From contig DAHWIK010000022.1 in the NCBI GenBank assembly GCA_027345185.1, positions 1 to 43,586 on the forward strand: a stretch of 43,586 bases of DNA, read 5' to 3'. How positions within the stretch are numbered: the stretch's first letter is position 1; each line of letters opens with the position of its first letter. The notes beneath the pieces are model-generated. The model was not told the DNA's origin. It was given only the letters and a program-made list of their open reading frames with translations, and searched no databases. A program made the position numbers and the translations under genes. Positions 1 through 30,863 of the stretch are shown here, piece by piece. The DNA is from Candidatus Micrarchaeota archaeon (GTDB taxonomy: Archaea > Micrarchaeota > Micrarchaeia > Micrarchaeales > CABMGC01).

Positions 1-863
1 AATGGGGAGCAGATAGAACCGTGGACGACAAACCTAGAAGTGGTAAACCATCAAAACTGACACCAGAAGATGACAAAGAAATCAAAGACCTTATAGACAA
101 CAAGAAACCCAAAGATTTCGGGATAAACGCTGCAACTTGGACGACCAGGGAACTGCGAGAATATTTTCTGAAGTCCCATAATAAGGATATTGCTGAAGAA
201 ACCATCAGAGTGCACCTTCGCAAGACAGGTGCAAAGTATGTTAAATCGCAGTTAAGATACAAAGAGGCAGACATGAATAAACAGGTGAAATTTGCCCAAA
301 ATTTTCTCACTCTCTCAACAGAATCCGATTTCACCAAAATAGTATTTATCGACGAGATGTCTGTATCTACATCTGCACATAACGGTTATGGATGGACGTA
401 CAATCAGAGACTTGTGGTTGATGCGCCTCAAAAAGGGGTAGAAAGGGCAAACTACTTCGGCGCGGTGGAGGTCTCAGAAGGCGAGATAATCGAGACTGTA
501 AGGAAGAGCGCAAAGACGCCGTCATTCCTCTTGCTACTTCATAAAATAGACGATAGATATCCTAACGACAAAGTGCTTATATTGATGGATAACAGCGCAG
601 TCCATCACGATAAACGAGTAGCACGGTTCTTCGGTAAAAAGGATCATATGAAACCTCTGTTCCTACCTCCGTATTCACCAGAAATCAATCCAGAGGAATA
701 TGTCCATAATTATTTGAGGAACAAAACACTGAACAACTGCAATTTTATGAGCATAAAACAGATAGGTATAGTGATTGCAAACTTTATCAGGCGGATGGAC
801 CAGAAAATGATAAAGAGTATTGCGCCATTGGCACCTATTGAGGCATTACTTTCGGTCAAATGA
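1..863 (+). CDS. IS630-family transposase (5' end outside window)
   Basis: The frame is open to the window start (WGADRTVDDKPRSGKP). It has a wHTH region (WTTRELREY) and the DDE triad VFIDEMS / MDNSAVHH / LPPYSPEINPEE. Confidence 0.92.
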   Translation, partial: WGADRTVDDKPRSGKPSKLTPEDDKEIKDLIDNKKPKDFGINAATWTTRELREYFLKSHNKDIAEETIRVHLRKTGAKYVKSQLRYKEADMNKQVKFAQNFLTLSTESDFTKIVFIDEMSVSTSAHNGYGWTYNQRLVVDAPQKGVERANYFGAVEVSEGEIIETVRKSAKTPSFLLLLHKIDDRYPNDKVLILMDNSAVHHDKRVARFFGKKDHMKPLFLPPYSPEINPEEYVHNYLRNKTLNNCNFMSIKQIGIVIANFIRRMDQKMIKSIAPLAPIEALLSVK

Positions 864-890
864 CTGTTGTGGGACTTTCAAGGAAAGCTA
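1..890 (+). mobile_element. IS630 element, right end at about 890 followed by TA target
   Basis: The transposase stops at 863, then ...ctttcaaggaaagcta|TA|atg. IS630 elements insert at TA, and ankyrin-coding sequence starts right after. The left end is not visible, so the TIR cannot be confirmed. Confidence 0.6.
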
Positions 891-1135
891 TAATGTTCGT
901 GGCAAGGTACGGATTTGAGCCTATTGCAACCATGCTCCTTGATTATGGCGCCGACCCTTTCGCAAGAAGCAATTACGGACTGGCTGCCAACGACTTTGCA
1001 AAGGTCGCAGGCCATAGCAGCCTGCTTGGGATAATCCCAAGCGACGATGCCTTTAGGAAGGAATTGCAGCGCGGCTCTGAGGCAATTTCAAGGCTGAGAA
1101 GAGGGATTCATGAACAGCGCATAAAGGTGTTTTGA
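891..1135 (+). pseudogene. 3' remnant of ankyrin-repeat gene interrupted by IS630
   Basis: MFVARYGFEPIATMLLDYGADPFARSNYGLAANDFA is an ankyrin repeat lacking its GxTPL start. The first ~11 codons of ORF 860-1135 lie in IS sequence. Confidence 0.65.
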
Positions 1136-1148
1136 TGGAGGATAACTA

Positions 1149-1508
1149 ATGCGGGCTGCAATGCATGGAAATCTTGAAACCGTTGTGTTCTTTGTAGAAA
1201 AAGGCGCAAACATTAATGCCAGGGATAATTTTTCCTGGACGCCGCTCATGAATGCCGCAAGCGTTAATGACACTCCCGAACGGCTTGAAATGGTGAAGTT
1301 TCTTGTGGGAAAAGGTGCAGATATAAACGTAATAAACCGCAATGGAATGACCGCATATGAATTGGCGAAGAAGTTGAAGAATGAGAATATTGCAGTATTC
1401 CTATCTTGCGCTGAAACGTCGGTAATGGTGATGGCCGATGCAAGGGTCGCGCTGGGGAGATTGCGGAGAGGGTCTGCTGAAAATGGTGCAAGGAGGATCA
1501 CGGTCTAA
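1149..1508 (+). CDS. Ankyrin-repeat protein with basic C-terminal tail
   Basis: AAMHGNLETVVFFVEKGANINARDNFSWTPLMNAA and FLVGKGADINVINRNGMTAYELA; a GGAGG SD-like motif lies upstream. Confidence 0.88.
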   Translation: MRAAMHGNLETVVFFVEKGANINARDNFSWTPLMNAASVNDTPERLEMVKFLVGKGADINVINRNGMTAYELAKKLKNENIAVFLSCAETSVMVMADARVALGRLRRGSAENGARRITV

Positions 1509-1608
1509 ACAGCCACTGAATAATGCGTGGATATACTGCGGTGCGAAATCATTTATCAGAATATATAATAAATTATAGCCTTTCAATTAATAGAGTATAT
1601 GGGATTAC

Positions 1609-3198
1609 ATGAATCATAAGTTAGAAACCAGCATACTTAGATTCCTCATCGTATCATGCATGCTGATTGGTATTTCATACGCCTCCTCGTTCCAGTTAAG
1701 TTCTGTTTATCTGAACAACACAGCAAATCCAGGGCATACCCTGCAGCCCAACCAGCCAGAAGCCCAGGGAGTCTGGTCATTTAACGTATCGTTCAACAGC
1801 ACTGGGCAGAACATAAACGCAAGCATAGGGTCAGGAGCAATTAATTATACCGACTCTGCAGGTAGGCAGATAACAGCTTCTTACCCTCTGCGGATATATG
1901 GCACTCTGAGCCAACAGAAGACCTCGTATTACACAGTCAATACGTTCAGGCTTGTGCCGATACAGACAATGTCTTCTTATTATACGGTTGGCACTGTTAC
2001 TCAGAGCGGAATATACCAGAACGCCACTCCTGCCCCGCAGTGCTATCCTACTGGGCTTTACTCGGAGTGGGATCTATACTTAAGCGTTCAGCCGAGCTTC
2101 GGCAGCATAGTAAATAATGTTCCTGTAGGGCGGGTATGCATATACAATGAGACTGTGGGATGGGCAGAGGTGCTTCCTGTGTCCCCTATAGTCCGGCTCT
2201 TTGCGAACATATCACTTTATGCAAACGGTCAGCATGAGGTACTGCAGTTGCCTTATAATAATACACCGGCTATCTCTAGTGACAGGCTTGCAGAGGCATG
2301 GTGGATAAACCAGACAGGCATAGCGCTTGGAGGAACAGCAGCGCCAAATGGCACAGATTATGTAGCACTCAATGACTCTAAGGGGCATTGGTATCTTCAG
2401 AATGCTGGCACATACATGAGGTGGTACACGCAGTATTACAAATTCACTCAGAGCAAAATACCAAACTTCAATCAGCATTTCAATCCGACCAGCCTAGGCA
2501 TAGTTTCCAGTTCGTGCGTTGTTGTATCTGCTACACAACTTACCAACCAGTCAGTCAAAAATGCAGTTAACTGCATGAATACAACAGCTTCAGTTTACTA
2601 TTCGTTGTCGAATCTTCAGGCTGCAGCGCTTATGTATTCGGTGCAGAACCTGTCTGGATATCAATATGAGATAACCAATTTTGACGGAAGCCCTGCATTT
2701 GCAATAAACCTCCCTGCAAGATTCACACCCAATCCTAGGATAAGGTTCGCTCTGAATGGTCAGTTCCTAGGGTTTTCACTTCCTGCAGGAGCCCCGCAGA
2801 TACTCATAGTAAATGCATCTCCTGTCAGCATATCAGGGACAGGAACCTTGACAATGCTCGTTGAGAATTATGGAACAACCCAGGGGCTTTTCAAAGTCTC
2901 GATAAACGACTGCTCTGGAGTATCGGCTGAGCCGGGAGTGAGCTATACTGTTGGATCCGGCCAGGTAGCAAACATAACAACATCATTCACAGCTCCTAAT
3001 GCAAACCTTACCCTGAACGAGCAGTGCGAAGTGCAGATAATGGGGGCAAATGGCGGAGGGAATACAAAGACAGTCGCTCTGGTCTCCCAGACCCCTAATG
3101 AATATCTGCATAATGAACTAGAAGGGGCGCAAAGCGCTTTGTGCGATAGCGACGGGATATTCACAGAATTCCTATGCCAGTATGTAGGGATAGGATAA
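1609..3198 (+). CDS. Secreted/cell-surface glycoprotein, unknown function
   Basis: N-terminal signal peptide (RFLIVSCMLIGISYA), many N-x-S/T sequons, several Cys, and an Ig/CARDB-like C-terminal beta region (GTLTMLVENYG). Confidence 0.75.
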   Translation: MNHKLETSILRFLIVSCMLIGISYASSFQLSSVYLNNTANPGHTLQPNQPEAQGVWSFNVSFNSTGQNINASIGSGAINYTDSAGRQITASYPLRIYGTLSQQKTSYYTVNTFRLVPIQTMSSYYTVGTVTQSGIYQNATPAPQCYPTGLYSEWDLYLSVQPSFGSIVNNVPVGRVCIYNETVGWAEVLPVSPIVRLFANISLYANGQHEVLQLPYNNTPAISSDRLAEAWWINQTGIALGGTAAPNGTDYVALNDSKGHWYLQNAGTYMRWYTQYYKFTQSKIPNFNQHFNPTSLGIVSSSCVVVSATQLTNQSVKNAVNCMNTTASVYYSLSNLQAAALMYSVQNLSGYQYEITNFDGSPAFAINLPARFTPNPRIRFALNGQFLGFSLPAGAPQILIVNASPVSISGTGTLTMLVENYGTTQGLFKVSINDCSGVSAEPGVSYTVGSGQVANITTSFTAPNANLTLNEQCEVQIMGANGGGNTKTVALVSQTPNEYLHNELEGAQSALCDSDGIFTEFLCQYVGIG

Positions 3199-3203
3199 AG
3201 GAA

Positions 3204-4331
3204 TCAACCAATCTTGTTCTCGAGTCCCTCATTTACGAATTGGCTTATCTTAGCACTGTCTGTTATGAGCGGCGTTGATTTAAGCATCTCCTGGTAGGTC
3301 CACTGTGGACCGAATATTACCCTTAGGTCATTTATTGTGAATCCGGGATTCCTCTCCCTGCACAGCTCCAATATGTCATTCACTAATATGTCCGGGGGCG
3401 TAGGGCCCTTTGGCGCACCTGATTCAATCATGTCTCCGTTCAATGCAGTCCTGAGCACCCATATTCCCCTGTTGTCAGTGCTGTATTCGGATTCGGAGTC
3501 TATGAACTCTAAATCAAGGCATTGGCCTCCTTCGAAGATTAGCCTCATGCGCTTCCGCTCATGCTGTATCTTAAGTCCCAACCCTACACGTATGTCTGCC
3601 ATTGCTCCTTCCTTGAAGAATGCACCTGATATCTTGACCCGCGCGTGAACCCCTGTCGGATCGCCGACAACATATGCCGGATTTGCAACATACGGATGCA
3701 TCTCCTTTAGCTCGAATCTCTCAGCAATAGCACCCTTGTAATAAGTCTCGAAGGGGTGTATTAGGTCCATGAACACCCCTCCGTTCTTCATCTGGAATAG
3801 CCACAGCCTCCTTCTGTCAACGTTGGGGTGTTCGGGCTCAAAGAACGTGAACGATGTGGCGACTATCTTGCCGTACTCTTTTGTCATCCTCTTGAGCATC
3901 TCGACAAGCCCGATGGTAAGCAGCTTGTGTGCATAGTGAAGATGAAGGTACGATTTGTTCTGCAGGCCGTTCTTCTCTATGTAATCAAGAACGCCCTCAA
4001 ACTCCTGCTTGTTGCCTCCGAAGGTCTTCTCTGTCAGCACTATCTTCCCCTTTGAAAGGGATTGCATAGTCTGCTGCGCGTGGAACTCGTTTGGATCAGA
4101 GACATGCACTATGTCCAGCCCCTCAAAGAATCCTTCGGGAATAGTCGTATTGCCATTTATCTGGTAGTAATTCGACTCTGGAACGTTTAGGTTGGCAAGC
4201 CTATCCTTTTTTGATTCAACGGCGCTAGCCCCTGCAACCTTGAGCAGCTTTATCTCGTTGGTCTTGACCATTCCGGCGTACAGCCTCTCGAACCAATGCC
4301 CCATACCTATAACTCCGAGATTATATGCCAT
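3204..4331 (-). CDS. Gfo/Idh/MocA-family NAD(P)-dependent oxidoreductase
   Basis: LGVIGMGHW Rossmann motif, DIVHVSDPNEFH, VLTEK and GGVFMDLIH; overlaps the gnd stop. Confidence 0.8.
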   Translation of the reverse strand: MAYNLGVIGMGHWFERLYAGMVKTNEIKLLKVAGASAVESKKDRLANLNVPESNYYQINGNTTIPEGFFEGLDIVHVSDPNEFHAQQTMQSLSKGKIVLTEKTFGGNKQEFEGVLDYIEKNGLQNKSYLHLHYAHKLLTIGLVEMLKRMTKEYGKIVATSFTFFEPEHPNVDRRRLWLFQMKNGGVFMDLIHPFETYYKGAIAERFELKEMHPYVANPAYVVGDPTGVHARVKISGAFFKEGAMADIRVGLGLKIQHERKRMRLIFEGGQCLDLEFIDSESEYSTDNRGIWVLRTALNGDMIESGAPKGPTPPDILVNDILELCRERNPGFTINDLRVIFGPQWTYQEMLKSTPLITDSAKISQFVNEGLENKIG

Positions 4332-5244
4332 GCAGTCTCTCCTTCTTCACTTCGTGTCCTCCAAATTCGTGCCTCAAAGACGCAATGACCCTCTTGCTGA
4401 ACTTCTTTGCGTCACGGGATTCGAAACGTTCGTACAGAGATGTGGTTATTGCACTGAAAGGTATATTGTAATCTACAGCCTCCTTGACCGACCACTTGCC
4501 CTCTCCTGTGTCTTCAACATACGGGGCTATCGAATCAAGATGAGGGTCTAGCTCCAGAGCTTTTGATGCGAGCTCAATTAGGTATCCGCGTATCACGGAT
4601 CCGTTGTTCCACAACTCGGTGAGTTTCTTGAGATTTATGTTCTTATATGGACCGTTCTCAACAAGGTCAAGACCCTCAGCTATAGACTGCATCATCCCGT
4701 ACTCTATGGCATTGTGAACCATCTTAGTGAAGTGACCTGTCCCGCTCTCTCCTGTGTAAAGGTATCCTTTGGGAACGCTTAAGTCCTTGAATATATGCTC
4801 TGACCTATTGAACGCATTCTTGTCTCCTCCGATCATTATCGACATTCCGTTCAGCGCGCCGCTAGGCCCTCCGCTGCACCCAGCGTCCAGATATGATATT
4901 CCCATCTTTGCAAGCTCTGCGTTTAGTATTACTGCGTCTTTGTAGTAAGAGTTTGAGCCATCTATTATCGTATCACCTTTCTTGCAATGTGAAGCAAGCT
5001 CACGTATTATGCTTACGGTGATATCCCCTGATGTCAGCATGACCCAAACGGTCCTTGGTCCCTTCAAGTATGCAGCAAGTTCCTTGACTGACTTGGCCTT
5101 CCTTGCGCCTTTTGAGGCAACATCGTTTAGAGGCCCCGTGGATCTGTTGTACGCAGTAACAGAATAGCCCTTACTTAGCATCTGCAAAGCAATATTCTTC
5201 CCCATCTTTCCTAGGCCGACGATCCCTATCTCTTTTCCTGCCAC
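4321..5244 (-). CDS. gnd: 6-phosphogluconate dehydrogenase, decarboxylating (short YqeC type)
   Basis: GIVGLGKMG, IIDGSNS, SGGPSGA, GHFTKMVHNAIEYGMMQ, DTGEGKW and LRHEFGGH; GTG start at 5244 is likely. Confidence 0.95.
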   Translation of the reverse strand: MAGKEIGIVGLGKMGKNIALQMLSKGYSVTAYNRSTGPLNDVASKGARKAKSVKELAAYLKGPRTVWVMLTSGDITVSIIRELASHCKKGDTIIDGSNSYYKDAVILNAELAKMGISYLDAGCSGGPSGALNGMSIMIGGDKNAFNRSEHIFKDLSVPKGYLYTGESGTGHFTKMVHNAIEYGMMQSIAEGLDLVENGPYKNINLKKLTELWNNGSVIRGYLIELASKALELDPHLDSIAPYVEDTGEGKWSVKEAVDYNIPFSAITTSLYERFESRDAKKFSKRVIASLRHEFGGHEVKKERLHGI

Positions 5245-5313
5245 TAAATCCCCAGTACAGGATTGTATCATGGATTAAAAGTTATAAATATGTGATCTTT
5301 CATCTTTTATGAC

Positions 5314-5874
5314 ATGCTAAAATCAGCGCCAAAAAAGTATGGGCCTGCAAATGAACCAGAATTGATGGGCTATCTGGCCGGTGAGCTTACCGAAAAGGCG
5401 ATTAGCATGAAGCTTTCTGCTATTTTAGGCTGCAGGTATACGCTGATTAATGGGCATGCGCCTTTCACCGCACCCAACTTCGGAGAATACAGAGGTATGA
5501 CCCCTAAGAATCTGGACGTAGTCCAAATAGATGCCAGGACTGGCAATGTGGCTGCCATATATGAGGTTAAGAGCACGACAACAGATAAGGTAGAGTTTAA
5601 TGTGAACGGCCAGTCTGGTATATTCATGGCCCATGCCGCAGAGCTGGGAATACCTACATTCCTTGTTGTGGTGCGGATGGACCGCAGTATCAGCGAGGAT
5701 GTTCTGAGAAAGGAGCTATCAACAGGCAAAGTGGTTATAAACCCAGAAGCATATCTGTCAGAAGTCAACCATCTGTTGAAAACTTCACGTGTAGAGCTAT
5801 ATGACTCGGCTCGGTTTATGGTTGAAGGCGGAAAGTTTCTGGTTTCTGGAGTCCCGAAGTCATTGGAGTCCTGA
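5314..5874 (+). CDS. PD-(D/E)XK nuclease-fold protein
   Basis: GELTEK...NLDVVQID...IYEVKST matches the E/D/ExK catalytic arrangement. Confidence 0.6.
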   Translation: MLKSAPKKYGPANEPELMGYLAGELTEKAISMKLSAILGCRYTLINGHAPFTAPNFGEYRGMTPKNLDVVQIDARTGNVAAIYEVKSTTTDKVEFNVNGQSGIFMAHAAELGIPTFLVVVRMDRSISEDVLRKELSTGKVVINPEAYLSEVNHLLKTSRVELYDSARFMVEGGKFLVSGVPKSLES

Positions 5875-5876
5875 CA

Positions 5877-6305
5877 TTATTGAACTATCTCTACATTTCC
5901 GTCAATTAAATGAGCAAGCATAAATCCTGAGTCAGGAGTGCAAGAAAGAACCTGCCGCTGTATCTGGTCTCTGCAGTTGCTTAATATTTTTATCTTGGTT
6001 TTCCTGTTTTTAAGGATATTATTCTGTTCGGACAGGTTTGCATGATAAATAATGCCAAATTCCGATGAGCGGTCTTTTATCTGAACTGCTCCGCTGGCAT
6101 CCACTCCGTTAGTTATAAGTAATTTCAACAGCTCTTCTTCTGATGCAAGTTCATTCTGGCTGCTGATCCTCTCAGAACCGGTAGCTTCGGCCGACTTTAT
6201 CGTTATCTTTGGAACATTGATTCGTATTCTCTTTGCAAATATCAGGAATCCAATGGCAAATAGTATCTCTGGCACACTAACTAGGAGCTGGTATGCGAAG
6301 TTCAT
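5877..6305 (-). CDS. Hypothetical protein with N-terminal TM helix (last gene of ATPase cluster)
   Basis: Hydrophobic N-terminus (LLVSVPEILFAIGFLIFAKR); ATGA overlap with the upstream gene. Confidence 0.65.
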   Translation of the reverse strand: MNFAYQLLVSVPEILFAIGFLIFAKRIRINVPKITIKSAEATGSERISSQNELASEEELLKLLITNGVDASGAVQIKDRSSEFGIIYHANLSEQNNILKNRKTKIKILSNCRDQIQRQVLSCTPDSGFMLAHLIDGNVEIVQ

Positions 6306-6976
6306 GCCCTCACTATCTCAAGATTCCCGTTCCTCAAGCTTATGAACCTGTATCCCCTGCTTCTCAGCTCGTTTATTGCCTCTGCAATGGTCTCTTGGGT
6401 CACTCCAAGCTCCCTTGATATCGCTGTATGGTCGAACCCGTTGCCATATTTGCAGAGCATTAGGGTTGAAACAGTAGAAATAAGTCTTGACTTGAGCTCA
6501 TTTGAGTATTTTTCAAGCCTATTCCTCTGTCCAAGTAGTTCTATGACGCGTTTTGAAAGTATGATATCGGCTCTGCGGTTGAAATTGCTGGCCCTGTTCT
6601 CGTGAATTAATATATCGCTGTTTGAAAGGAGATACGTCAGGTATGGAAGCAGGCCCCGTAAATCTATCTCATAGTCCTCTGACAATGCAATGGAAACGCT
6701 CATCAGCCTGAGCACCGATTCTTTCATGAAATATGTTGGTGAAGATGTTGAATTGGTGGTCATTGTTATCCTGTCCTTCTCCAATTCAAGCACATGGAAC
6801 CTGTCGGCCTGCGTTTCATACCCTATAAGGTAAGTTATCCTGGTCCCTGTGGCCACTTGCTTGATGGCTGGATAGCAGGATATCCTTGATTTTACACTTG
6901 GCATGCTGGTTTTAATTCTTGCCTCAAGTCTTATCCTGCTTGAGAAATAGATCTTTCCCTTGTTTTTCGTATTCAT
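6302..6976 (-). CDS. Hypothetical protein with coiled coil and C-terminal winged HTH
   Basis: DHTAISRELGVTQETIAEAINELRSRGYRF is wHTH-like; translationally coupled on both sides. Confidence 0.65.
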   Translation of the reverse strand: MNTKNKGKIYFSSRIRLEARIKTSMPSVKSRISCYPAIKQVATGTRITYLIGYETQADRFHVLELEKDRITMTTNSTSSPTYFMKESVLRLMSVSIALSEDYEIDLRGLLPYLTYLLSNSDILIHENRASNFNRRADIILSKRVIELLGQRNRLEKYSNELKSRLISTVSTLMLCKYGNGFDHTAISRELGVTQETIAEAINELRSRGYRFISLRNGNLEIVRA

Positions 6977-8070
6977 GCACCAATATTGCTTATTGCTATG
7001 GAGAAGGCGTCGGCTATGCTTGAGTTGCTGAATCCGATTTTCTGTAGTCTCAGCAGTATGCCGCGCCTGTCTGCACCGTTTTCAATCAGTTTCGCCACTA
7101 GGTCAGGTAGAGTTATGCAGTTTTCCTTGACCTTATCCTTTACATGAACCAATTTACCCCTTCCGCACAGTGAAGCAACCATTTCGTCGAATTCTGTCAC
7201 GCTTATTCCAATCTCCATTCCAGCACCTGTTCTAATTCTTATCGTATTGGTGTCCCGTATCCCTATAACTTTGCGTATGGTGAATGCTGACCTTACACCG
7301 GATTTGTGAAGCTGAATTACAAAGCAGCTGCCAAGGTCAAGATCTTGTATGCTTTTGAGCTCCTTCTCCGACAGGTTGAAGTTTTTTGACAGAGTCTCAA
7401 GGCTTTTGATGTTTGTTGTCTTGAATATGAAGATCGTGGCCATGTTTGATAGGATGTTTGCGCTTGTGTCGTGCAGGAGCTGGGATGACGTTATCAGGCC
7501 AACGCCATATTTTCTGCCCTCCCTTATGATTGTCTCGAGCCCCTTGTTCTTTTCTATGAGCTTCCATGCCTCGTCGATCAGTATCATCAGCCTGTTCCTC
7601 TGCTTGTAGCCTCTCTTTCTCATCAGTTCTGCGGCCTTGTCGAAAATCTCTGATGCCTTTGCCACCTTTTCACTTTCTGATAGCCCATGCAGGTCTATGT
7701 GCATCACGCCTTGGCCCTCTCCAAAAAGCCCTTCCAGACCTGGTGAATTTATGACCTGAAGGCTTGATGCGGCTTCAAGGTATTCTCCTGTAAAATCGAT
7801 AAGCAGCACGTTTGAGCTTGAAAACATGTACATGCGTGCGAAAAGGCTTTTTGCAAGATAGGTCTTTCCTCCACCGGTCATTCCACATATCAATATGTGC
7901 GGATTCAGCAGGTTTCTGAAATCTATGAATGCGGGCATGTTTAAATGGCTGGTATTTCCCAGCAGGGTCCCATCTTCAGAGCTTCTGGCGCTGGTTTCCA
8001 GGTCCGGCTCTGGAGATATTGGCATATATATCAAATTGGCAACGCTTTCTGAGCTTATCAGGTCTAGCAA
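6973..8070 (-). CDS. HerA/VirB4/FtsK-superfamily ATPase (DUF87-like)
   Basis: Walker A HILICGMTGGGKT, LIDFTGEY, Walker B ILIDEAW, REGRKYGVGLITSSQ. Confidence 0.9.
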   Translation of the reverse strand: MLDLISSESVANLIYMPISPEPDLETSARSSEDGTLLGNTSHLNMPAFIDFRNLLNPHILICGMTGGGKTYLAKSLFARMYMFSSSNVLLIDFTGEYLEAASSLQVINSPGLEGLFGEGQGVMHIDLHGLSESEKVAKASEIFDKAAELMRKRGYKQRNRLMILIDEAWKLIEKNKGLETIIREGRKYGVGLITSSQLLHDTSANILSNMATIFIFKTTNIKSLETLSKNFNLSEKELKSIQDLDLGSCFVIQLHKSGVRSAFTIRKVIGIRDTNTIRIRTGAGMEIGISVTEFDEMVASLCGRGKLVHVKDKVKENCITLPDLVAKLIENGADRRGILLRLQKIGFSNSSIADAFSIAISNIGA

Positions 8071-8793
8071 TCAAACACCGCTATAGTCCAGGAGAGCCTC
8101 CCCCCTAAGGATATCGTAATCGAGCCCAAGGGACGCTGAGAACTTGTTGGCGAGTATCTCTATGTTTTTGGCTGAATAGGCTTCAGCATCGTTCTGGTCA
8201 TCCGAGGTGCTTATGGACTTTATCCTTATTACGAATTGGAAGGATTTGCCAGAGGATGCAAGGCTTGATATATCGCCGTTTATTAGGTCTATCTGGCGCT
8301 TCAGGAAGCTCGCTTTGTCATAGGACTTCTCCCCTATCCTTGAGAGGGCTATTTCCTTCATCCTCAGCTTCGCCCTGAGATTATCCAATATCTTTGTCTT
8401 GTCTGCCTCTGACAGCTCAACCGAGAACTCGAAACGCTCGTTCAGGCTGTCGAGAAGATCCTTCAATGAGTGGCTCTTCACCTCGGAGCCGGCCCTTGGC
8501 TTCAGCAGCGCTATGGATATTGCCCTGAATAATTCGCCCTCCTTGCGCGATATTGAAACCAGATTCGTGCTTATCCTGTAATTTCCGGAGAGCATGACTA
8601 TCTTTGATCTTTTAATCAGGAGATTATTGATTATGTGACCTGAATGCAGCATAATGACGGCAAAAAGCAGGAGCAGGGCTGAGGCAAGCAGTATTGCAGG
8701 ATTGGAAAGGATAAGAGCGGTGATAAAAATCGCCGCAGATAGCGCATATGCCATGTAGAAATTGTTCTTGTTGTCTTGATTTGCGGTTTGCAT
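8071..8793 (-). CDS. Membrane protein (2 TM) with soluble domain resembling a VirB4 N-terminal part
   Basis: Two N-terminal TM helices, then a coiled coil and an alpha/beta C-terminus; abuts the ATPase start. Confidence 0.55.
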   Translation of the reverse strand: MQTANQDNKNNFYMAYALSAAIFITALILSNPAILLASALLLLFAVIMLHSGHIINNLLIKRSKIVMLSGNYRISTNLVSISRKEGELFRAISIALLKPRAGSEVKSHSLKDLLDSLNERFEFSVELSEADKTKILDNLRAKLRMKEIALSRIGEKSYDKASFLKRQIDLINGDISSLASSGKSFQFVIRIKSISTSDDQNDAEAYSAKNIEILANKFSASLGLDYDILRGEALLDYSGV

Positions 8794-8794
8794 G

Positions 8795-9823
8795 CTAAAT
8801 CATCTCGAATATGTTGAATGTCATCTCTGAGCCCAGCAAGGCTGCTGTCTCCTTTATGGATATTGATGTTATGACGACGCTGAATGCTGGGAGTATAAAG
8901 GCCGCCATGATGAAGTATGAGATGTAGTCCATTATGGCGCTGATCAGGTTGGATACCTGCCCGGAGATTGATGAAAGTAAGGAGGAGATTCCAGACATTA
9001 TTGAACCGGTGTCATTTGAATTGGGATCCAAGCCTACGACATATGAGTTCAGTCCGGAAGCGGAGCTCGACAGGCTGACTATCGTCGAGTTGCTCAGGCT
9101 TGCCTGGTATGAGCTTATTATCGAGGCGTTCAGCACGTATGTCAGCGGAAACACCACATAAAGTCCGACGACTGACCCGAGCAGAAACCCTCCAATCTGC
9201 CTGGTCGGATAAAATGTCCTGAGTATGAGCCCAAGAGGCAGTATGACCGTGGTTGCTGAGGCGGCTATTGCCGTGAGTATGGATGACTGCACAAGCACGC
9301 TTATCGATACTGTCGTGAGTGTCTTTATGAAGAACTGTATCTGGTTCAGGACAGGCTGGAGGACCTGAGTCAGTGAAAAACTTACTACAATGATACTTAT
9401 CTTCAGGGAGGAGAGAAGGCCCAGTACAGTATTCAGCGATAGCAAGCTTATTATCAGGCCGGTTGACTGGGACAGGATCGATGCATGTTGCACCCCATCC
9501 AGGAAATAGCCTCCTCCGGAAAGGTAGCCGCTCGCAAAGCAGATCGCAGCGTTTGAACTGAGATATGTTGGGCATTGCACGGATGTACTATTGAATGTGG
9601 CGGAATTTATTATCGATGTTATTATTCCTGATGGCAGGAAGAGCGCTGCCATTCCGCCAATCAGCAGCCCGTTGACCAGGCACTGGTTAAGCTCATCCCT
9701 TCCAAACTCCTTCAGCCTCCTGTTGCTTGTTGCATAGCCGATGCCTACCGAAATACCTCCTATCGAGATCATTATTGCAAGGACGCTGACCGCAATGGAG
9801 AATCCGTATCCGCCTGAGAGCAT
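8795..9823 (-). CDS. Polytopic membrane protein, VirB6/CedA-like
   Basis: About 6-7 hydrophobic segments, LPLGLILRTFYPTRQIGGFLLG, and a Ser-rich external loop with a Cys pair. Confidence 0.6.
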   Translation of the reverse strand: MLSGGYGFSIAVSVLAIMISIGGISVGIGYATSNRRLKEFGRDELNQCLVNGLLIGGMAALFLPSGIITSIINSATFNSTSVQCPTYLSSNAAICFASGYLSGGGYFLDGVQHASILSQSTGLIISLLSLNTVLGLLSSLKISIIVVSFSLTQVLQPVLNQIQFFIKTLTTVSISVLVQSSILTAIAASATTVILPLGLILRTFYPTRQIGGFLLGSVVGLYVVFPLTYVLNASIISSYQASLSNSTIVSLSSSASGLNSYVVGLDPNSNDTGSIMSGISSLLSSISGQVSNLISAIMDYISYFIMAAFILPAFSVVITSISIKETAALLGSEMTFNIFEMI

Positions 9824-9829
9824 TTTAGA

Positions 9830-10210
9830 TCACGTTACGTTTGCTGGTGTGCTATTTGACAGCAGGTGTGTCGATGCCAGTGCAAAGCTGTTCGCTGTAA
9901 CTGAGAGGACTGCTACAACCACAGCGCCCATTATCATGTCACCCGCAGTTGTATGGAAGCTCGCGCGCTGATGCGCAGGGAAGAGTTGACCTATCGCGTA
10001 AAGCAGGCCTGCTATTATGAACAGTATTGCACTCAGTATGGGACCTATGTGGGTCAGGAGGTCCTGTACGTAGGTTAGGGTCGAGATTATGTCGAGTGTT
10101 GCGAAACTCTGGGCGCCTACAAGCCTAGGCAGCAATATGGCAGCAGCACAGATTGACAGTATCGTTTTCATCTTGGAGTAGTCGTATTTTCCCAGATCCA
10201 TTCGTATCAT
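9830..10210 (-). CDS. TrbC/VirB2-like pilin
   Basis: Signal peptide (...LLPRLVGA-Q), an amphipathic helix, then two TM helices (IGPILSAILFIIAGLLYAIG; MIMGAVVVAVL) separated by a short polar loop. Confidence 0.6.
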   Translation of the reverse strand: MIRMDLGKYDYSKMKTILSICAAAILLPRLVGAQSFATLDIISTLTYVQDLLTHIGPILSAILFIIAGLLYAIGQLFPAHQRASFHTTAGDMIMGAVVVAVLSVTANSFALASTHLLSNSTPANVT

Positions 10211-10459
10211 CTTTTACTTAAGTATATGATTATATACTTAGATAAATATTTAAGGCTTGCTGTTTGGATAAGCATGCGGTTTGTGCTGGTTTTGGCCTGG
10301 CAAGCACCAGTATATTGGCCTTTATAGCAGATCTAGAAAGCAATACAACACATTGTCGAGTAAGAAGTGTAGTATTATAATCCTGTCTTGCTATAATCAT
10401 CAATCGTAGCTTTGTTAGATTCGACATCTACTTGCTACGGAAATGAAGACAAGAAAGCC

Positions 10460-10467
10460 TTTTAAAA
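10460..10467 (+). promoter_or_regulatory. TATA box of 5S rRNA gene
   Basis: TTTTAAAA preceded by purine-rich AAGAAAG (BRE-like), about 25 nt upstream of the 5S start. Confidence 0.55.
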
Positions 10468-10487
10468 CTATTAGTGCCATATACTTA

Positions 10488-10604
10488 TGTCAAACGGCCA
10501 TAGGAGCGGGGAAACGCCCGAACTCATTCCGAACTCGGAAGCTAAGACCGCTTACGATATGAAATACTGCGCTTATGCGTGGGAAAGCATATTGCTGTTT
10601 GGCA
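10488..10604 (+). rRNA. rrf: 5S rRNA
   Basis: Helix I tgtcaaacggc/gctgtttggca; conserved GGCCATAG, GAAAC-CCCG-ACTCATTCCGAACTCGGAAG-TAAG and TGGGAAA; about 117 nt followed by a T-tract. Confidence 0.93.
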
Positions 10605-11627
10605 TTATTTTTTCCTGTTGTACAACTGCCCTATCGCAGAGAGCATTGTTTCGGTATACTCATTGTCAGGTATGACCCCTCCGTAAGTGGTTATCGCTTC
10701 CTTGGCCTTGTTTGAGTAGTCCTCTGCTATTGACCTTGCGTAGTCTATTCCGCCGTACTTGTCTACAAGTTCGACCAGGAAGTTTATCTCGTCTTGTGTC
10801 TTCTGTTCCCTCCTCTTTGAATATATTGAGTCGACCTTTGCCTTTTCATCCGCAGTGGCACTTGAATAGGAGTGCAACATTATCAGGGTAAGCTTGCCCT
10901 CATACAGGTCTCCGTACCTCTTCTTACCAAACTCCTTATCGTCTGCAGTCATGTCCAGTATATCATCCACTATCTGAAACGACATTCCTGCAGGCTCACC
11001 TATAGTCTTCATCAGGTTGACTGTGCCTCCATCCCTCCCTGAGATCATCACGCCGATCTGCATGGGCCCGTATACTGAATAATAGCATGTCTTACCGTGC
11101 ACTATCCTGAAATAGAGGTCCTCTGTGGCCTTGGAGAGATTCCTGACGTTGAACATGAAGTTGGTCTCAAGATACTGTCCCTCAACCGTGTATTCAAGCA
11201 TCTCATAGAACTTCTCATATATCCTGTTTCCCTGGTCAATACCCATCTTGATGAGGTTGTCCTTTAGCATCCTCCACATTGCAATGTGTGCGGCGTCTCC
11301 AGCGTTTATGGCTATCTCGTTCCCATAGATCTTCTGTAACGCAGGCTTTCCTCGCCTAAGGTCAGAGTTGTCCTCTACGTCATCATGGATTAGTATCCAG
11401 TCCTCTGACAGCTGCATTGCTGCAGCAGGAAGCAATAATTTTTCTCTTGTTGCACCGAACATCTCCCCTGCAAGGAGGAGAAGCCCTGGTCTCCTGTAGT
11501 TTCCCTTCCTTTCGCTGTACTCCCTGACTATCTTGTAATGCTCTGAAGGCTCCTTGATTGGAAGATACTCCATTATCTTTGCATATATGTCGTCCCTGTA
11601 TCCGTCTACGTACTCCTTGAAGTCCAT
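10605..11627 (-). CDS. idsA: Polyprenyl (geranylgeranyl) diphosphate synthase
   Basis: LIHDDVEDNSDLRRG, AINAGD, GKT and FQIVDDILD; start at MDFKEY (11627). Confidence 0.92.
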   Translation of the reverse strand: MDFKEYVDGYRDDIYAKIMEYLPIKEPSEHYKIVREYSERKGNYRRPGLLLLAGEMFGATREKLLLPAAAMQLSEDWILIHDDVEDNSDLRRGKPALQKIYGNEIAINAGDAAHIAMWRMLKDNLIKMGIDQGNRIYEKFYEMLEYTVEGQYLETNFMFNVRNLSKATEDLYFRIVHGKTCYYSVYGPMQIGVMISGRDGGTVNLMKTIGEPAGMSFQIVDDILDMTADDKEFGKKRYGDLYEGKLTLIMLHSYSSATADEKAKVDSIYSKRREQKTQDEINFLVELVDKYGGIDYARSIAEDYSNKAKEAITTYGGVIPDNEYTETMLSAIGQLYNRKK

Positions 11628-11631
11628 TGGA

Positions 11632-12294
11632 TTACCTTGCAGTTTTGCTGTAGTACCTGCAATATGATTTAACCGGACATTCATTACATAAAGGTTTTGT
11701 TTTGCAGTATGCTTTCCCAAGCTCTACGAACTGGGCATGGAAATCCTTGTAGAGTTCAAGGTCGTCTGGTATGGTTCCGGATATGTCGAATCTAAGCTCG
11801 TCGTACTCTATATCCGGATCGCTTCCGTATATTCTGCTCGCTATCCTCTTAGTATAAGAGTCTATTACGAACATCGGCTTGCCTGCAGCGTAAAGTATTA
11901 TTGAGTCGGCAGTCTCCTTGCCTATCCCTTTTATCGAGAGCAGCTCCTCCCTCAGCTCGCCTGTGTCATTTGATAGCATCTGGTCAAGGGACGAGTAGTT
12001 TGAGAATATGTACCTTGCAAAACCCTTGAGCCTTGCAGCCTTCTGCTTGTAGAATCCTGAAGGCCGTATGAAACGCTCGAGCGAATTTACGTTAATCGTG
12101 CTGATCTTCTTCAGATTCAGGCATTTTGCTGACCTGAGGTTTGATATTGCCTTCTCTACGTTCTTCCATGAGGCCTGCTGCGTGAGTATAGCTCCAATTA
12201 TTATCTCGTCCCTGGTTTCCCCTGGCCACCAGTCTAGATAGCCAAAGCGTTCCCTAAGCTTTGCATACAGTACTGGAATTGGGAGTGCTTTCAT
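11632..12294 (-). CDS. Endonuclease III-related HhH-GPD DNA glycosylase with [4Fe-4S]
   Basis: GAILTQQASWKNV, LLSIKGIGKETADSI, FVIDSY and a Cx6Cx2Cx5C motif. Confidence 0.92.
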   Translation of the reverse strand: MKALPIPVLYAKLRERFGYLDWWPGETRDEIIIGAILTQQASWKNVEKAISNLRSAKCLNLKKISTINVNSLERFIRPSGFYKQKAARLKGFARYIFSNYSSLDQMLSNDTGELREELLSIKGIGKETADSIILYAAGKPMFVIDSYTKRIASRIYGSDPDIEYDELRFDISGTIPDDLELYKDFHAQFVELGKAYCKTKPLCNECPVKSYCRYYSKTAR

Positions 12295-12307
12295 CCAAGC
12301 ACCATGA

Positions 12308-12775
12308 TCACACCTTAAGCTCTCCGCTGTTTATCTTTGCTATCGTCTCCCTTGCGCTTACACCGTCGCATGTTATGTTCATGCTCTTGCAGGTTCCCAA
12401 TACCTGCTTCACCCTTGAAGATAGAGTATTTCCATAAAGCGAGGCCTTCTTTGCCTCTGCTATTTTCTTTACTTGATCAAGCGTTATGTTTCCAGCTATC
12501 TCTTCCTTTACTTTTCCTCCCTTCTCGAGCCCGAGCTCCTTGAGTATGAGAGCGCTTGTGGTAGGCGATCCGACCTCCACCTTGAACTCCTTTGTCTCCT
12601 TTGTCACTGTGACCTTTACGGGGATCTTTATCCCGGCGAATGCCTTGGTCTTCTCGTTTATCTCTGCGACTATGTTTGCAGTATTAACTCCGAGTGGCCC
12701 TAGCGCAGGACCGAACGGTGGCCCAGATGTTGCCTTTCCCCCTTCTATGAGTCCATTAACTACTACTTCTGTCAT
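12308..12775 (-). CDS. rpl11: Ribosomal protein uL11
   Basis: GGKATSGPPFGPALGPLGVN and VLGTCKSM. Confidence 0.97.
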   Translation of the reverse strand: MTEVVVNGLIEGGKATSGPPFGPALGPLGVNTANIVAEINEKTKAFAGIKIPVKVTVTKETKEFKVEVGSPTTSALILKELGLEKGGKVKEEIAGNITLDQVKKIAEAKKASLYGNTLSSRVKQVLGTCKSMNITCDGVSARETIAKINSGELKV

Positions 12776-12779
12776 TATT

Positions 12780-13229
12780 TCATCCCTTTTCTGCTTTTTG
12801 AATTATCCTTGCCATGTTGGCCTTTGTTGTCACTGGTATTGGAACTGCAACATCCATAAGCTCTACGGTTATCTCGTCCTTTCCGCTGTCTATCTTTATG
12901 ACCTTAGCCTTATATCCCTTGAACGGGCCTGCGAAGAACTCTATTGTGTCGCTGACCGATATCTCCTGTGTGCTCTGCTTGGAGGCAAGAACCTTGTCTA
13001 GATCAGCTTCGTCAAGAGGTTTTGCGAGCATACCTTTGACGTGGGGTTCGTTGAGTATGAGATCCCTGCACGCGATCTCGCTTGCAGCCTCGACTATCAG
13101 ATATCCGCGCATGCCGAAGGGCATTATTATTGAATGGATATCGGTGTTTCCCTTTGAGACCTTGTTTTGGAGTATGTCTGCGGTAATCTTCTCCTGGCTT
13201 GCGGTTACTCTTACGATGAAGTATACCAA
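12780..13229 (-). CDS. spt5: Transcription elongation factor Spt5 (NusG)
   Basis: NGN domain (GYLIVEA) plus KOW (GPFKGYKAKV, VPIPVT). Confidence 0.95.
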   Translation of the reverse strand: MVYFIVRVTASQEKITADILQNKVSKGNTDIHSIIMPFGMRGYLIVEAASEIACRDLILNEPHVKGMLAKPLDEADLDKVLASKQSTQEISVSDTIEFFAGPFKGYKAKVIKIDSGKDEITVELMDVAVPIPVTTKANMARIIQKAEKG

Positions 13230-13266
13230 TTTATCACTTTTTATGCTTTTTTGTCAATATCAGTCT

Positions 13267-14292
13267 ATGCTTGGAGTCAGGGTGCGCAAAGCCGGCGCGG
13301 AAAAGATAAAAAAGTACCTCGCAAGGCAGAAACTAATGGATATTAATTACAGATTAATTAGTTCTAACGAATTTATATACTTTCCCATCAGCAACCCAGA
13401 CTCTCGGAACAGGCGCTTTCTGTCGATCCAAAAGGCGGAAATTGTAGATATGAAATTCGATAAAACTTCCGTGCAGCCAAGCTACAGGGAGAGACTCAGG
13501 AAGGCGCTTGGGAAGGGGTACGATGATACAGTAAAGAGCTATGATGTTATTGGGGATATGGCGTTGATAGACGCTAATAATGCAGTAACCGCGAGGAAGA
13601 CGGCCAAGGTCATAATGGGCCTGAACAAGAATGTGAAGACAGTGCTGTCAAAAGGAGGACCTGTAAGCGGAAGATACAGGATAAGGAAATACAAGTATGT
13701 TGCAGGGAAGAGGAAGTACGACACCGTTTACAATGAGAATGGATGTTCATTCAAGATTGATGTACGCAAGTCATTCATATCTACAAGGCTTGCTTATGAG
13801 AGGAATAGGGTGTCAGAACTCGCCAAGGACGGCGAAAATGTGGCAGTAATGTTCGCCGGAGCCGGACCGTTTGCAATAGAGATCGCCAAGAGGCATAAAA
13901 ATGCAAGGGTTCTTGCAATTGAGCTCAACAGGCAGGCCTACAAGTACATGCTTGAGAACATAAAACTGAACAGGGAGAAGAACGTCGATGCGCAGCTGGG
14001 GGATGTGAATATGCTTGCACCAAAGTATCCGAAATTTGCTGACAGGATAATCATGCCACTTCCAAAGAGCTCTTATGAATTCCTTGGTTCTGTGCTGAAG
14101 ATGGCAAAAAACGGATGCATGGTGCATTATTACGCGTTTGGAAAGAGCGACTCGGCGTTTGAGGATATAATATCTGAGCTGAAGGGGTTCTTCAGGAAGA
14201 ATGGCAGGAGGATAAAGATAATCTTCAAGAGGGTTGTCAAGACATACTCGGCCGGCGAGATAGAAGTAGTTATAGACTTCAGGATTCACTGA
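13267..14292 (+). CDS. Trm5/Tyw2-family SAM-dependent tRNA modification enzyme
   Basis: SYDVIGDMA, ENGCSFKID, MFAGAGPFAI, ENIKLN and DRIIMPLP; true start probably MLGVRV at 13267. Confidence 0.9.
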   Translation: MLGVRVRKAGAEKIKKYLARQKLMDINYRLISSNEFIYFPISNPDSRNRRFLSIQKAEIVDMKFDKTSVQPSYRERLRKALGKGYDDTVKSYDVIGDMALIDANNAVTARKTAKVIMGLNKNVKTVLSKGGPVSGRYRIRKYKYVAGKRKYDTVYNENGCSFKIDVRKSFISTRLAYERNRVSELAKDGENVAVMFAGAGPFAIEIAKRHKNARVLAIELNRQAYKYMLENIKLNREKNVDAQLGDVNMLAPKYPKFADRIIMPLPKSSYEFLGSVLKMAKNGCMVHYYAFGKSDSAFEDIISELKGFFRKNGRRIKIIFKRVVKTYSAGEIEVVIDFRIH

Positions 14293-14305
14293 CTAATTCA
14301 GAAGA

Positions 14306-14662
14306 TTATTTGTATATCGAGTGGTACACATTGTTAGTGTCGTCCGTTATGACTATGCACTCTCCTTCGCATTCGACAAGGCATGCTTGGCAGAGTATGC
14401 ATGATGGACCGTTGACTGCCACGGACAGACCTCCACTTCCAGCTTCGTGCTTCTCGGCGAAGTGCTTGTGGCCGTCCTGCACGTTTGCCCATTTTGCAGT
14501 GGTCTCAGGAGTGTGCATACCCTTCCATTTGAATTCTTCTGGCGCATGGTCGTTGTTTACATCAGGCGAATTGAGGTCCTTCATTTCGAATACTGCTACT
14601 GGGCAGACATCGAAGCAGTGTGAGCACCCTGTGCATTTTGTTTTTTCTACATACACATCCAT
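14306..14662 (-). CDS. 2[4Fe-4S] ferredoxin with His-rich insertion
   Basis: CTGCSHCFDVCP and CILCQACLVEC motifs separated by about 70 aa. Confidence 0.88.
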   Translation of the reverse strand: MDVYVEKTKCTGCSHCFDVCPVAVFEMKDLNSPDVNNDHAPEEFKWKGMHTPETTAKWANVQDGHKHFAEKHEAGSGGLSVAVNGPSCILCQACLVECEGECIVITDDTNNVYHSIYK

Positions 14663-14735
14663 TATCAGCACCAGACTACTATTCTTTAGGATATTATATA
14701 AATATTGCTGTGGCTTTTGGCGATCCGCGATTAGT

Positions 14736-15582
14736 TTATACTATGAAATCAATGGTTTCCCCGTGTTTCGTCTTTTCAAGAGTCTTTGAAAGGGTCTCGC
14801 GCTCCTGCCCGTTCTTGAAATATCTGCCCGCACCCGCATATGCGTTTAGCGATGGCAGGAGCCGTTCCAGGCCACACCAGGCATTATGCCATATCTTATG
14901 AGTGTCTGTGACGTGGGGATGCTGAAGGACATATTCTGGTTGTGCCTCTCTTATTAGCTCCTTGAAATCCGACTTGATGCCCCTGCGCCACTCTCCTGCC
15001 CTTTCAAAGCCGCGATTGTTGAATATGTTCAGGTCATGGCATCCGAGTATCGCCACTTTGCCGAAATCCGAGTCAAGGAAGTGCGAGCTTAGATCTGAGA
15101 CCCTTGTCAGCGAGCCTTCCTGACCAGAAGTAGGATAGGATTTTCCAGTCCGGCGGTATTCACCAGTGGATAGATCCACGAATGCGACCAATTCTGTATG
15201 CGCCTGTGAGATGTGGGTCTGGGACGTGGACACCTGTGATTTCGATTAATCCGCTCCGAATGAGATGTAGGTCGTGTGCTGCCTCAATGCCCTGACTAAA
15301 TCGTCAGTTAGAAGATTGTCCACTGCACATGCGGCAACGCTTATCAGATCTTTCATTGTCTTTGCATGTAGATCCTTGTTCTCCTTAGGCCCCATTGCAG
15401 CGAATCTTTCAGGCATATCGAAGGCGACAAAGCCTCCGCAGGTTATAAGAAATTTTGTCCTCACATCTCTTGGATAGCTTTCGGCTGCAGAATAAAGGAC
15501 ATCCCTAGCTGCACCAATATCGCCGCTCCAAGGTCTGCATATGATTATCCTTCCTATTGGGGTTTATCATCATATCTGACAT
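14736..15582 (-). pseudogene. Disrupted carbon-nitrogen hydrolase-like gene
   Basis: ORFs 15246-15464 and 14736-15233 share a frame and are separated by one TAA. The 5' part needs a one-base correction in a C4 run at about 15560. ILGCHDL resembles the nitrilase catalytic Cys motif. Confidence 0.6.
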
Positions 15583-15691
15583 AGACGCCAGACCCACTGG
15601 AATTAATTTTAGTGTTTTGTTTCTGCGTCAGGGACTTGCCACGTATCAAATAGGTATTTTACTAAAATGGCCCCATATTTAAAGACTAACC

Positions 15692-16699: not shown

Positions 16700-16747
16700 G
16701 AGACTACCTAGCAGTAGCTACGGGCTTTGCGCGCCGGATATGCGCGT

Positions 16748-17047
16748 TTAGCCGAATAGGCTTGCTAATCCTCCTGCTGCCTGCTCTTCGCTTACCTTCT
16801 CTTCTACAGCTTCCTGCTTCTTGGCTGCTGGGGCTGCGCCTGCCGCTTGGGCCGGTGCAGCTACCTGGACATTCTGGGCGTTCTTTATAACGTCCTTTAT
16901 GTTTACCTCCTTGAGCGAGTTTGCCACTGTCTTTGCCATCGCCTCGTCAGGCGCAAGGCCTGCTGCCTTCACAACGTCTGCAAGGCTCTTCTCGCTTATC
17001 TCTTTTCCTGCCGCGTCCAAGAGAAGTGCTGCGTATATGTACTCCAT
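16748..17047 (-). CDS. rpl12: Ribosomal stalk protein P1/L12
   Basis: MEYIYAALLL, Ala-rich hinge, GLASLFG end. Confidence 0.97.
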   Translation of the reverse strand: MEYIYAALLLDAAGKEISEKSLADVVKAAGLAPDEAMAKTVANSLKEVNIKDVIKNAQNVQVAAPAQAAGAAPAAKKQEAVEEKVSEEQAAGGLASLFG

Positions 17048-17073
17048 CGTTTCACCATTTATTCAGTATGATT

Positions 17074-30812: not shown

Positions 30813-30863
30813 CCAATTAGCCACTATATAATGGACGGGATTAAATTTAATTAAGTTGCGTGT

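Follow-up and report, generated by a model that had tools for sequence, protein, structure and literature searches.

By what route DPANN archaea draw material from their hosts is not settled, and Micrarchaeota have had no dedicated transfer apparatus assigned to them. A candidate is offered by six genes in a stretch of 43,586 nucleotides (hereafter the window; contig DAHWIK010000022.1 of assembly GCA_027345185.1, positions 1 to 43,586) from a Candidatus Micrarchaeota archaeon, whose genome assembly amounts to 923 kb in 49 contigs and is 83% complete. The genes, here called A to F, are six head-to-tail open reading frames (ORFs) on the minus strand, at 5877-10210 of the window. A first-pass annotation had read them as a minimal transport system derived from a type IV secretion system (T4SS) and resembling the archaeal Ced and Ted machineries, and the analysis described here supports that overall reading. 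We consider it likely that the six genes make up a single operon encoding a vertically inherited, T4SS-derived machine with the same minimal parts as Ced and Ted, and about the identity of the machine itself we are more confident still. The main addition to the earlier reading is that the motor appears to be split, with gene C encoding the front part of a VirB4/CedB-like protein and gene D its ATPase.

Gene C (8071-8793, minus strand) encodes a protein of 240 amino acids (aa) with two N-terminal hydrophobic helices by hydropathy. It belongs to no family in Pfam or NCBIfam, and a C profile found nothing meaningful among PDB sequences. The structure predicted for C, with a predicted local distance difference test score (pLDDT) of 81.7, was matched by Foldseek to TrwK, a VirB4 protein, in all of the top 12 listed rows, at probabilities of 0.84-1.00 with seven rows at 1.00 (best E 7.5e-4, probability 1.00), and the first protein other than TrwK followed at a probability of 0.12. 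VIA-align superimposed residues 70-239 of the C model on residues 221-370 of TrwK (Z 9.8, root-mean-square deviation (rmsd) 4.2, 146 residues), a region that is part of the VirB4 N-terminal domain and lies immediately before the ATPase; C covers only the second half of that domain. A comparison of the C model with PDB cluster representatives gave helical-hairpin matches for residues 127-185 only, and VirB4 was not among the proteins listed. Gene D (6973-8070, minus strand, TTG start) encodes a 365-aa P-loop ATPase of the HerA/VirB4/CedB superfamily, with a Walker A motif at residues 63-70, a Walker B motif at D166-E167 and a small C-terminal helical domain at ~270-365. It scores above the Pfam cut-offs for DUF87, AAA_10 and TrwB_AAD_bind (51.9, 45.4 and 31.4 bits), and Walker A, Walker B and an arginine-rich motif are invariant in all 18 family members. 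In D, residues 33-104 align with a VirB4-like model of 752 positions at 392-463, and residues 29-96 with the CedB model of 590 positions at 248-315. D takes up where the TrwK region matched by C stops, so that the two proteins are colinear with a single VirB4/CedB chain. Judged by these models, C and D are one split VirB4/CedB-like motor, of which C is the detached, membrane-anchored front part, and the membrane helices of C would be VirB3-like by position. Among the parts listed in the first-pass annotation, the HerA/VirB4 ATPase stands, but the protein described there as two transmembrane helices plus a soluble part is not an extra component; it is better seen as the front half of the motor, a partner of the ATPase that carries the VirB4-type N-terminal domain.

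The split does not seem to be a peculiarity of the window. All 22 loci compared encode C and D as separate ORFs, and no fused form of ~600 aa was found among 129 D homologues (E<=1e-10), nearly all of which are 355-385 aa long; by this sequence evidence the split is old. At 8068-8073 of the window (minus strand) the TGA stop codon of C is followed directly by the TTG start of D in the same frame, and a zero-gap, in-frame junction of this kind occurs at two other loci. We considered a readthrough fusion of C and D and rejected it, because the two genes lie in different frames in 17 of the 22 loci, and readthrough is unlikely to be the rule at this junction.

Profile scores place D as an ATPase of the HerA/VirB4/CedB type. 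Its best NCBIfam match is CedB (NF041017), with 52.7 bits where the cut-off is 700, and it scores 45.3 bits with CedD (NF053655), where the cut-off is 600, and 39.8 and 27.5 bits with HerA models whose cut-offs are 800 and 970. When 18 members of the D family were scanned, all 18 matched CedB and F-type TraC, 17 matched CedD as well as a VirB4-like conjugation model (CD1110 family) and an anti-phage HerA model, and 13 matched the repair HerA models. With scores below the equivalog cut-offs, D is not a Ced orthologue. The combination of a HerA-clade ATPase in D with a VirB4-like N-terminal domain in C is, however, the mix reported for CedB and CedD in the passages on their domain architecture (PMC11868833).

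Gene A (9830-10210, minus strand, 126 aa) is, on sequence grounds, the precursor of a conjugative-type pilin of the VirB2/TrbC kind, as the first-pass annotation had proposed for the 126-aa protein. Hydropathy gives an N-terminal signal-like segment and then two hydrophobic helices, and the family alignment has a variable signal peptide followed by a strongly conserved mature part made of a hydrophobic helix, a basic loop and a second hydrophobic helix. The A protein of the window reaches 24.3 bits with Pfam TrbC (E 3.6e-5, cut-off 27.9). When the family was scanned one by one, PF18895 (T4SS_pilin) was matched by 11 of 25 members (best E 3.3e-7) and PF04956 (TrbC) by 8 of 25, so that both VirB2/TrbC families are reached at the sequence level. 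An A profile searched against PDB sequences had as its best match TrwL, the VirB2 of R388, at an E value of only 0.51, and in the protein Atlas the clusters nearest to A carry the automatic name TrbC/VirB2 (0.91). The predicted signal-peptide cleavage site is of the V-G-A|Q-S type, and a small-x-small site before the mature part is common to close relatives, which suggests that A is processed. An N-x-S/T sequon lies within the last 16 residues of all 25 members and suggests an external C-terminus, which may be glycosylated. The protein Atlas has A from residue 4, the second ATG being called as the start elsewhere, and the signal peptide is intact either way.

Gene B (8795-9823, minus strand, 342 aa) encodes a polytopic membrane protein with ~6-7 hydrophobic stretches by hydropathy. 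A search of 1.84 billion cluster representatives returned 2386 representatives of its family at E<=1e-3; with the best 150 of the 2386 listed, all the named proteins among ten B homologues are hypothetical proteins of Micrarchaeota. Ten distant relatives of B matched no Pfam family either, and the B profile found nothing meaningful among PDB sequences. A structural model built from 72 sequences (pLDDT 88.1, predicted template-modelling score (pTM) 0.83) was compared by Foldseek with 350,542 PDB chains, and the top five matches were all TrwI, the VirB6 of R388. VIA-align placed B on 241 of the 261 TrwI residues (Z 8.3, rmsd 5.4), and among its further matches is DotA from the Dot/Icm system (Z 7.8). 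The gene lies between the VirB2-like and the VirB4-like genes, a position from which the fold evidence gains weight, and it can be hypothesized that B is probably a VirB6/CedA/TedA-like platform or channel subunit. The earlier suggestion of a VirB6-like 342-aa protein is thus upheld in that the best structural matches are VirB6 chains, though with modest scores.

The ORFs are separated, from A to F, by 6, 1, 0, -4 and -4 bases, and this spacing argues for a tight operon. An AT-rich, TATA-box-like stretch at 10221-10251 (minus strand), 11-41 bases upstream of A's start codon, is its likely promoter. All six tightly coupled ORFs of the first-pass annotation were confirmed on the minus strand, and a hydropathy scan agrees with the topologies predicted there (signal peptide and two transmembrane helices, ~6-7, two, and a single one), with D and E lacking hydrophobic segments. 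The conservation of the gene order in relatives makes the operon more than a chance arrangement. When B was used as a query, 36 of 41 related genomes gave a match, 33 of them strong and full-length, and identity falls from 51-76% within the genus to 40-51% in the family and 25-42% in the order. At 17 of the 33 strong-match loci, picked so as to cover genus, family and order, the order and strand of A-B-C-D are the same without exception, and flanking genes are shared only within the genus. Twelve loci from other orders of the class carry A-B-C-D in four cases, A-B only in four, B only in three and an array of six B paralogues in one. The conservation of the cluster, which the first-pass annotation had asked to be checked, is therefore found across the order and in part beyond it. 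Of 151 genomes sampled from the phylum, of sizes ~0.6-1.5 Mb, 135 contain the B family, and of the 70 sampled from the order, 60 have an orthologue-level match (E<=1e-60); without one unpublished genome, which bears on no other result, the B tallies become 35 of 40 related genomes and 134 of 150 genomes of the phylum. A DNA-pattern search with the pilin alignment found 93 relatives, with 80 loci kept, nearly all from metagenome-assembled genomes named Micrarchaeota. By the source names of its homologues the genome belongs to Micrarchaeota (Microcaldota), a DPANN phylum, in line with the DPANN-type genome of the first-pass annotation.

Several points weigh against the interpretation of the operon as a T4SS-derived machine used for DNA. 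B has no Pfam or NCBIfam family and no sequence link to VirB6, TrbL or CedA; its best Foldseek match, TrwI, lies below the usual thresholds (E 0.055, probability 0.94, template-modelling scores 0.32/0.38), and its Z value of 8.3 on TrwI is tied with those of unrelated helical bundles such as IncA (8.4), so that the fold evidence taken alone is moderate. All NCBIfam matches of D are far below the equivalog cut-offs, and the D profile scores higher with HerA-family chains in the PDB (81, 78 and 74 bits) than with a VirB4 C-terminal domain (54 bits). In favour of the motor, a complex prediction for D with residues 62-240 of C supports binding, with a score of 0.71 against 0.13 for the best of three controls, a contact agreement between runs of at least 72% and a partner pLDDT of at least 75; of solved complexes 58 in 80 come up to 0.71, and of mismatched pairs 2 in 110, rough counts because own alignments were used. 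Since solved VirB4 structures exist, however, this pass may reflect likeness to them rather than binding. Ten of the 70 genomes of the order, themselves 88-97% complete, have only paralogue-level matches to B, so the compact operon is not universal. Neither a relaxase (PF03432) nor a coupling protein (PF02534) had a match in the genome, and at 83% completeness the absence of a relaxase is weak evidence; archaeal conjugative plasmids, too, are not known to carry canonical relaxases. The machine is predicted from genes and models, and DNA as its cargo is proposed by analogy alone.

With these points in mind, a mechanism can be envisioned in which signal peptidase I cleaves A once it has been exported, and the product, a two-helix pilin of the VirB2 type, is stored in the membrane, while B would form the membrane platform or channel for its polymerisation. 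C would tether the motor to the membrane and provide the VirB4-type N-terminal domain, and D would provide the ATPase ring. Together, C and D as one split VirB4/CedB-like motor could drive pilus assembly and the passage of a substrate across the single membrane and the S-layer. We infer pilus formation, stoichiometry, direction and cargo alike in this scheme; what the data show is the family or fold of A, C and D, the gene order together with its conservation, and the absence of mobile-element genes. The remaining two proteins, E with its helix-turn-helix (HTH) and the membrane-anchored F, would be lineage-specific accessories. Gene E (6302-6976, minus strand, 224 aa) encodes a predicted cytoplasmic protein with a conserved N-terminal domain, a helical middle and a C-terminal HTH, for which the Pfam matches, at residues 182-216, are weak and below cut-off, and the E profile reached a DeoR HTH at E 0.0058. 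In profile searches, E follows directly after D in 13 of the 17 foreign loci. A search of the protein Atlas with E gave scores of at most 0.84, which we treat as leads only. From its sequence E may be either a regulator or a DNA-binding accessory. Gene F (5877-6305, minus strand, 142 aa) encodes a small protein with a single N-terminal membrane helix, the hydrophobic segment being at residues 6-24, and matches no Pfam or NCBIfam family. It follows E in 7 of the 17 foreign loci by profile, all of them of the window's own family, and by this distribution is a lineage-restricted accessory.

What the machine would move is less clear than what it is made of. Since the tested archaeal relatives move DNA, our leading, though still tentative, proposal is that it serves contact-dependent uptake or exchange of nucleic acids with neighbouring cells, whether host or kin, by analogy with Ced and Ted. 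It is possible in turn, and nearly as likely, that the same machine is a host-interaction organelle, i.e. a pilus or conduit by which the small cell would hold on to its host and through which proteins, lipids or metabolites would pass. The system occurs in genomes of ~0.6-1.5 Mb across the phylum sample, and the T4SSs of Patescibacteria are reported mostly to lack relaxases, to appear co-opted for other functions and to be essential for the epibiotic growth of Saccharimonadia (PMC12102498). Pili-like connections between ARMAN and wall-less cells are mentioned in the text on a cultured relative (PMC5498576). The first-pass annotation had used the winged HTH of E as an argument for DNA as cargo. 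That argument has weakened: with the HTH below cut-off and the last 16-20 residues of E missing in the sister family, E is poor support for DNA cargo. Nothing in the operon is clearly DNA-binding, and Pfam and NCBIfam scans found no recombination or DNA-processing gene in it. Against an attachment organelle stands that DNA is what the only function-tested archaeal relatives, Ced with its newly added parts, are reported to import or export (PMC11868833, PMC9905601), that no effector-like gene is linked to the operon, and that the ten genomes of the order without an orthologue argue against an organelle that is indispensable.

Much less probable than either use is that the operon is no T4SS relative at all, and that D is a HerA-type pump with unrelated membrane partners, for example a membrane DNA pump for segregation or repair or a lineage-specific envelope complex, with the likeness of A to pilins and of B to VirB6 arising by convergence of small hydrophobic proteins. 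The preference of the D profile for HerA-family chains would fit such a pump, as would the fold match of B, which is not significant alone, and the score of the window's A below the Pfam cut-off. Against this, four independent parts agree on VirB2 for A, VirB6 for B, the VirB4 N-terminal domain for C and CedB/VirB4 for D, and they stand in a gene order typical of such systems, and the CedB and CedD passages already cited describe the same mix of HerA-clade ATPase and VirB4-like N-terminal domain (PMC11868833). A more specific candidate, the DNA-end-resection helicase HerA-NurA, was rejected on the sub-cutoff HerA scores, on the lack of any NurA match in the 83%-complete genome and on the operon partners of D, which are membrane proteins. 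As for a grouping of the ATPase with NurA-associated HerA, which the first-pass annotation had named as a finding that would speak against it, D has no NurA link by this search.

Still more improbable is that the operon, rather than a host system, is part of a plasmid or of an integrated conjugative element, either as a remnant or as a module still live, for although its parts are of the conjugation type, its flanks are the same only within the genus, the genome has six tyrosine-integrase matches with another VirB4-like ATPase ~3 kb from one of them (contig C17), and the text on a cultured relative speaks of 'potential conjugative elements' on genomic islands (PMC5498576), none of the six integrase matches is on the operon's contig, no tRNA was found in the window, no meaningful flanking repeats were found (one 20-nucleotide pair, with one copy inside B, is judged to be chance), the GC content of the operon is like that of its surroundings, identity decays with kinship while A-B-C-D is kept at all 17 loci of the order, and a tblastn search of 72,556 plasmid records with D gave 16 weak, partial matches with a coverage of at most 42%. 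Both flanks are housekeeping genes: one holds polyprenyl synthase, an HhH-GPD glycosylase, ribosomal L11, Spt5/NusG, Trm5 and L10, and the other a 6-phosphogluconate-dehydrogenase-like gene. The conjugative T4SSs of plasmids as well as of integrative and conjugative elements, grouped in mating-pair formation (MPF) classes, were tried as an identity for the operon and rejected, with no relaxase, coupling protein or mobile carriage found in this incomplete genome. The operon is chromosomal and fixed in its host, and it is most probably not a mobile element. The first-pass annotation had noted no relaxase or integrase nearby and a domesticated, chromosomal system, and both statements hold, given the housekeeping flanks, the lack of mobile-element genes and the conservation across the order.

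We return to the T4SS-derived machine and to the known systems that it resembles. The Ted system of Thermoproteales, compared here by its published description, consists of the pilin TedC, the VirB6-like TedA and the VirB4-like TedB (Beltran et al. 2023, PMC9905601). As in the passages describing Ted, the Micrarchaeota operon is a chromosomal minimal set of a VirB2-like pilin, a probably VirB6-like membrane protein and a VirB4-like ATPase; its pilin is apparently processed by signal peptidase I, as proposed there for TedC; and it has no recognisable sequence similarity to Ced parts, as reported there between Ced and Ted (PMC9905601). Unlike Ted, it divides the motor between two genes, C and D, keeps all parts, and E and F with them, in a single tight operon, has no linked ParA, Rad50 or HerA genes, and belongs to a DPANN archaeon with a genome of ~0.9 Mb. 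The Ced system of Sulfolobales comprises CedA, CedA1, CedA2 and CedB, to which the article's account adds CedD and CedE (PMC11868833). CedB is the best NCBIfam match of D and CedD is matched by nearly all D members (17 of 18), and the architecture described in that article, a membrane part followed by a VirB4-like N-terminal domain and a HerA-clade ATPase, corresponds to that of C and D, as does the division of the VirB4 N-terminal function between two polypeptides (PMC11868833). The score of D, by contrast, is far below the CedB equivalog cut-off, and the Ced pair as described consists of two full paralogous ATPases, whereas here the anchor and the N-terminal domain stand apart from the ATPase. 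The Ced pilins are moreover reported in the same account as unprocessed (PMC11868833), whereas A is predicted to be processed.

The T4SSs of Patescibacteria, the candidate phyla radiation, offer an analogy from Bacteria that we draw without a claim of common origin. As their description has it, they too belong to ultra-small, host-dependent cells, are chromosomal and spread lineage-wide, and combine VirB4 with VirB2-like pilins and VirB6-like parts but no relaxase (PMC12102498). The bacterial VirB4 is described there as one full-length protein nested in MPF-FATA (PMC12102498), whereas the motor here appears split and HerA/CedB-like. The structural reference for A, B and C is the inner-membrane complex of R388, with TrwL/VirB2, TrwI/VirB6, TrwM/VirB3 and TrwK/VirB4 (PDB entries 7o3v, 7o41-7o43, 8rt9, 8rtb and 8rtd). 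The structural alignments with R388 have sequence identities of 8-15%, and, unlike R388, the operon has no VirB5, VirB7-VirB11, VirD4 or relaxase and serves a single-membrane cell. Full-text literature searches that paired Micrarchaeota or DPANN with T4SS, VirB4, VirB6, CedA1, conjugation or pilin returned no description of the operon. In term searches, the available text of the Ced/Ted paper (PMC9905601) does not mention DPANN, and the main texts on two cultured Micrarchaeota do not name the operon, although their supplements may list its genes; one of these main texts mentions type IV pili along with the potential conjugative elements (PMC5498576).

The same genome holds a second, expanded paralogous system on contig C47 (bases 186-18421). 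It starts with a pilin paralogue of 136 aa and a 636-aa protein with ~13 hydrophobic segments, continues with six tandem B-like paralogues (417, 402, 564, 406, 374 and 365 aa), then a protein of 755 aa, a pair of C-like paralogues (280 and 273 aa) and a 501-aa D-like ATPase (Pfam TraG P-loop, DUF87, AAA_10), and ends with a 98-aa ORF that matches the C-terminal part of D. Tandem B paralogues are found in other Micrarchaeia genomes too, with many B matches per genome. At three loci from other orders of the class an ATPase of ~500 aa likewise precedes an ORF of ~100-160 aa whose match is to the helical C-terminal part of D, and this part seems to be a separable module. Three further HerA/VirB4/CedB-like ATPases are encoded in the genome, of 536 aa (contig C45), 732 aa (contig C4) and 575 aa (contig C17). 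The 536-aa ATPase adjoins an endonuclease IV gene; the 575-aa one is the ATPase ~3 kb from a tyrosine integrase match (C17:6553-7077), and that neighbourhood may be an integrated element.

Within the window, a stand-alone 5S rRNA gene (10490-10603, plus strand, 71.9 bits) lies between the promoter region of the operon and the polyprenyl synthase gene, and no other rRNA was found in the window. A 186-aa ORF at 5314-5874 (plus strand) converges on the end of the operon. It matches no Pfam family and has only a far sub-cutoff NCBIfam match, and the corresponding place in the closest relative's locus was found not to hold it. The largest ORF of the window, of 1300 aa, is at 27177-31079 (minus strand).

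The operon is a candidate for the exchange of DNA or other material with neighbours in a tiny, host-dependent archaeon, and it offers named, testable parts, namely a pilin that can be labelled or purified, a channel-like protein and a two-piece motor that can be expressed, in a group for which related co-cultures exist. It is tempting to speculate, as a possibility that we regard as rather doubtful, that it represents a third, ancient archaeal lineage of domesticated conjugation machinery with a uniquely split motor, which together with the six-channel paralogue on contig C47 would form a conduit for DNA or macromolecules from wall-less hosts and would be the archaeal counterpart of the Patescibacteria T4SS. 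The split motor itself, like the CedB/CedD pair, would mean that a VirB4 N-terminal domain is able to function on a polypeptide of its own. If the relationship to Ced and Ted proves true, a third archaeal lineage would be one in which host chromosomes have adopted conjugation machinery.

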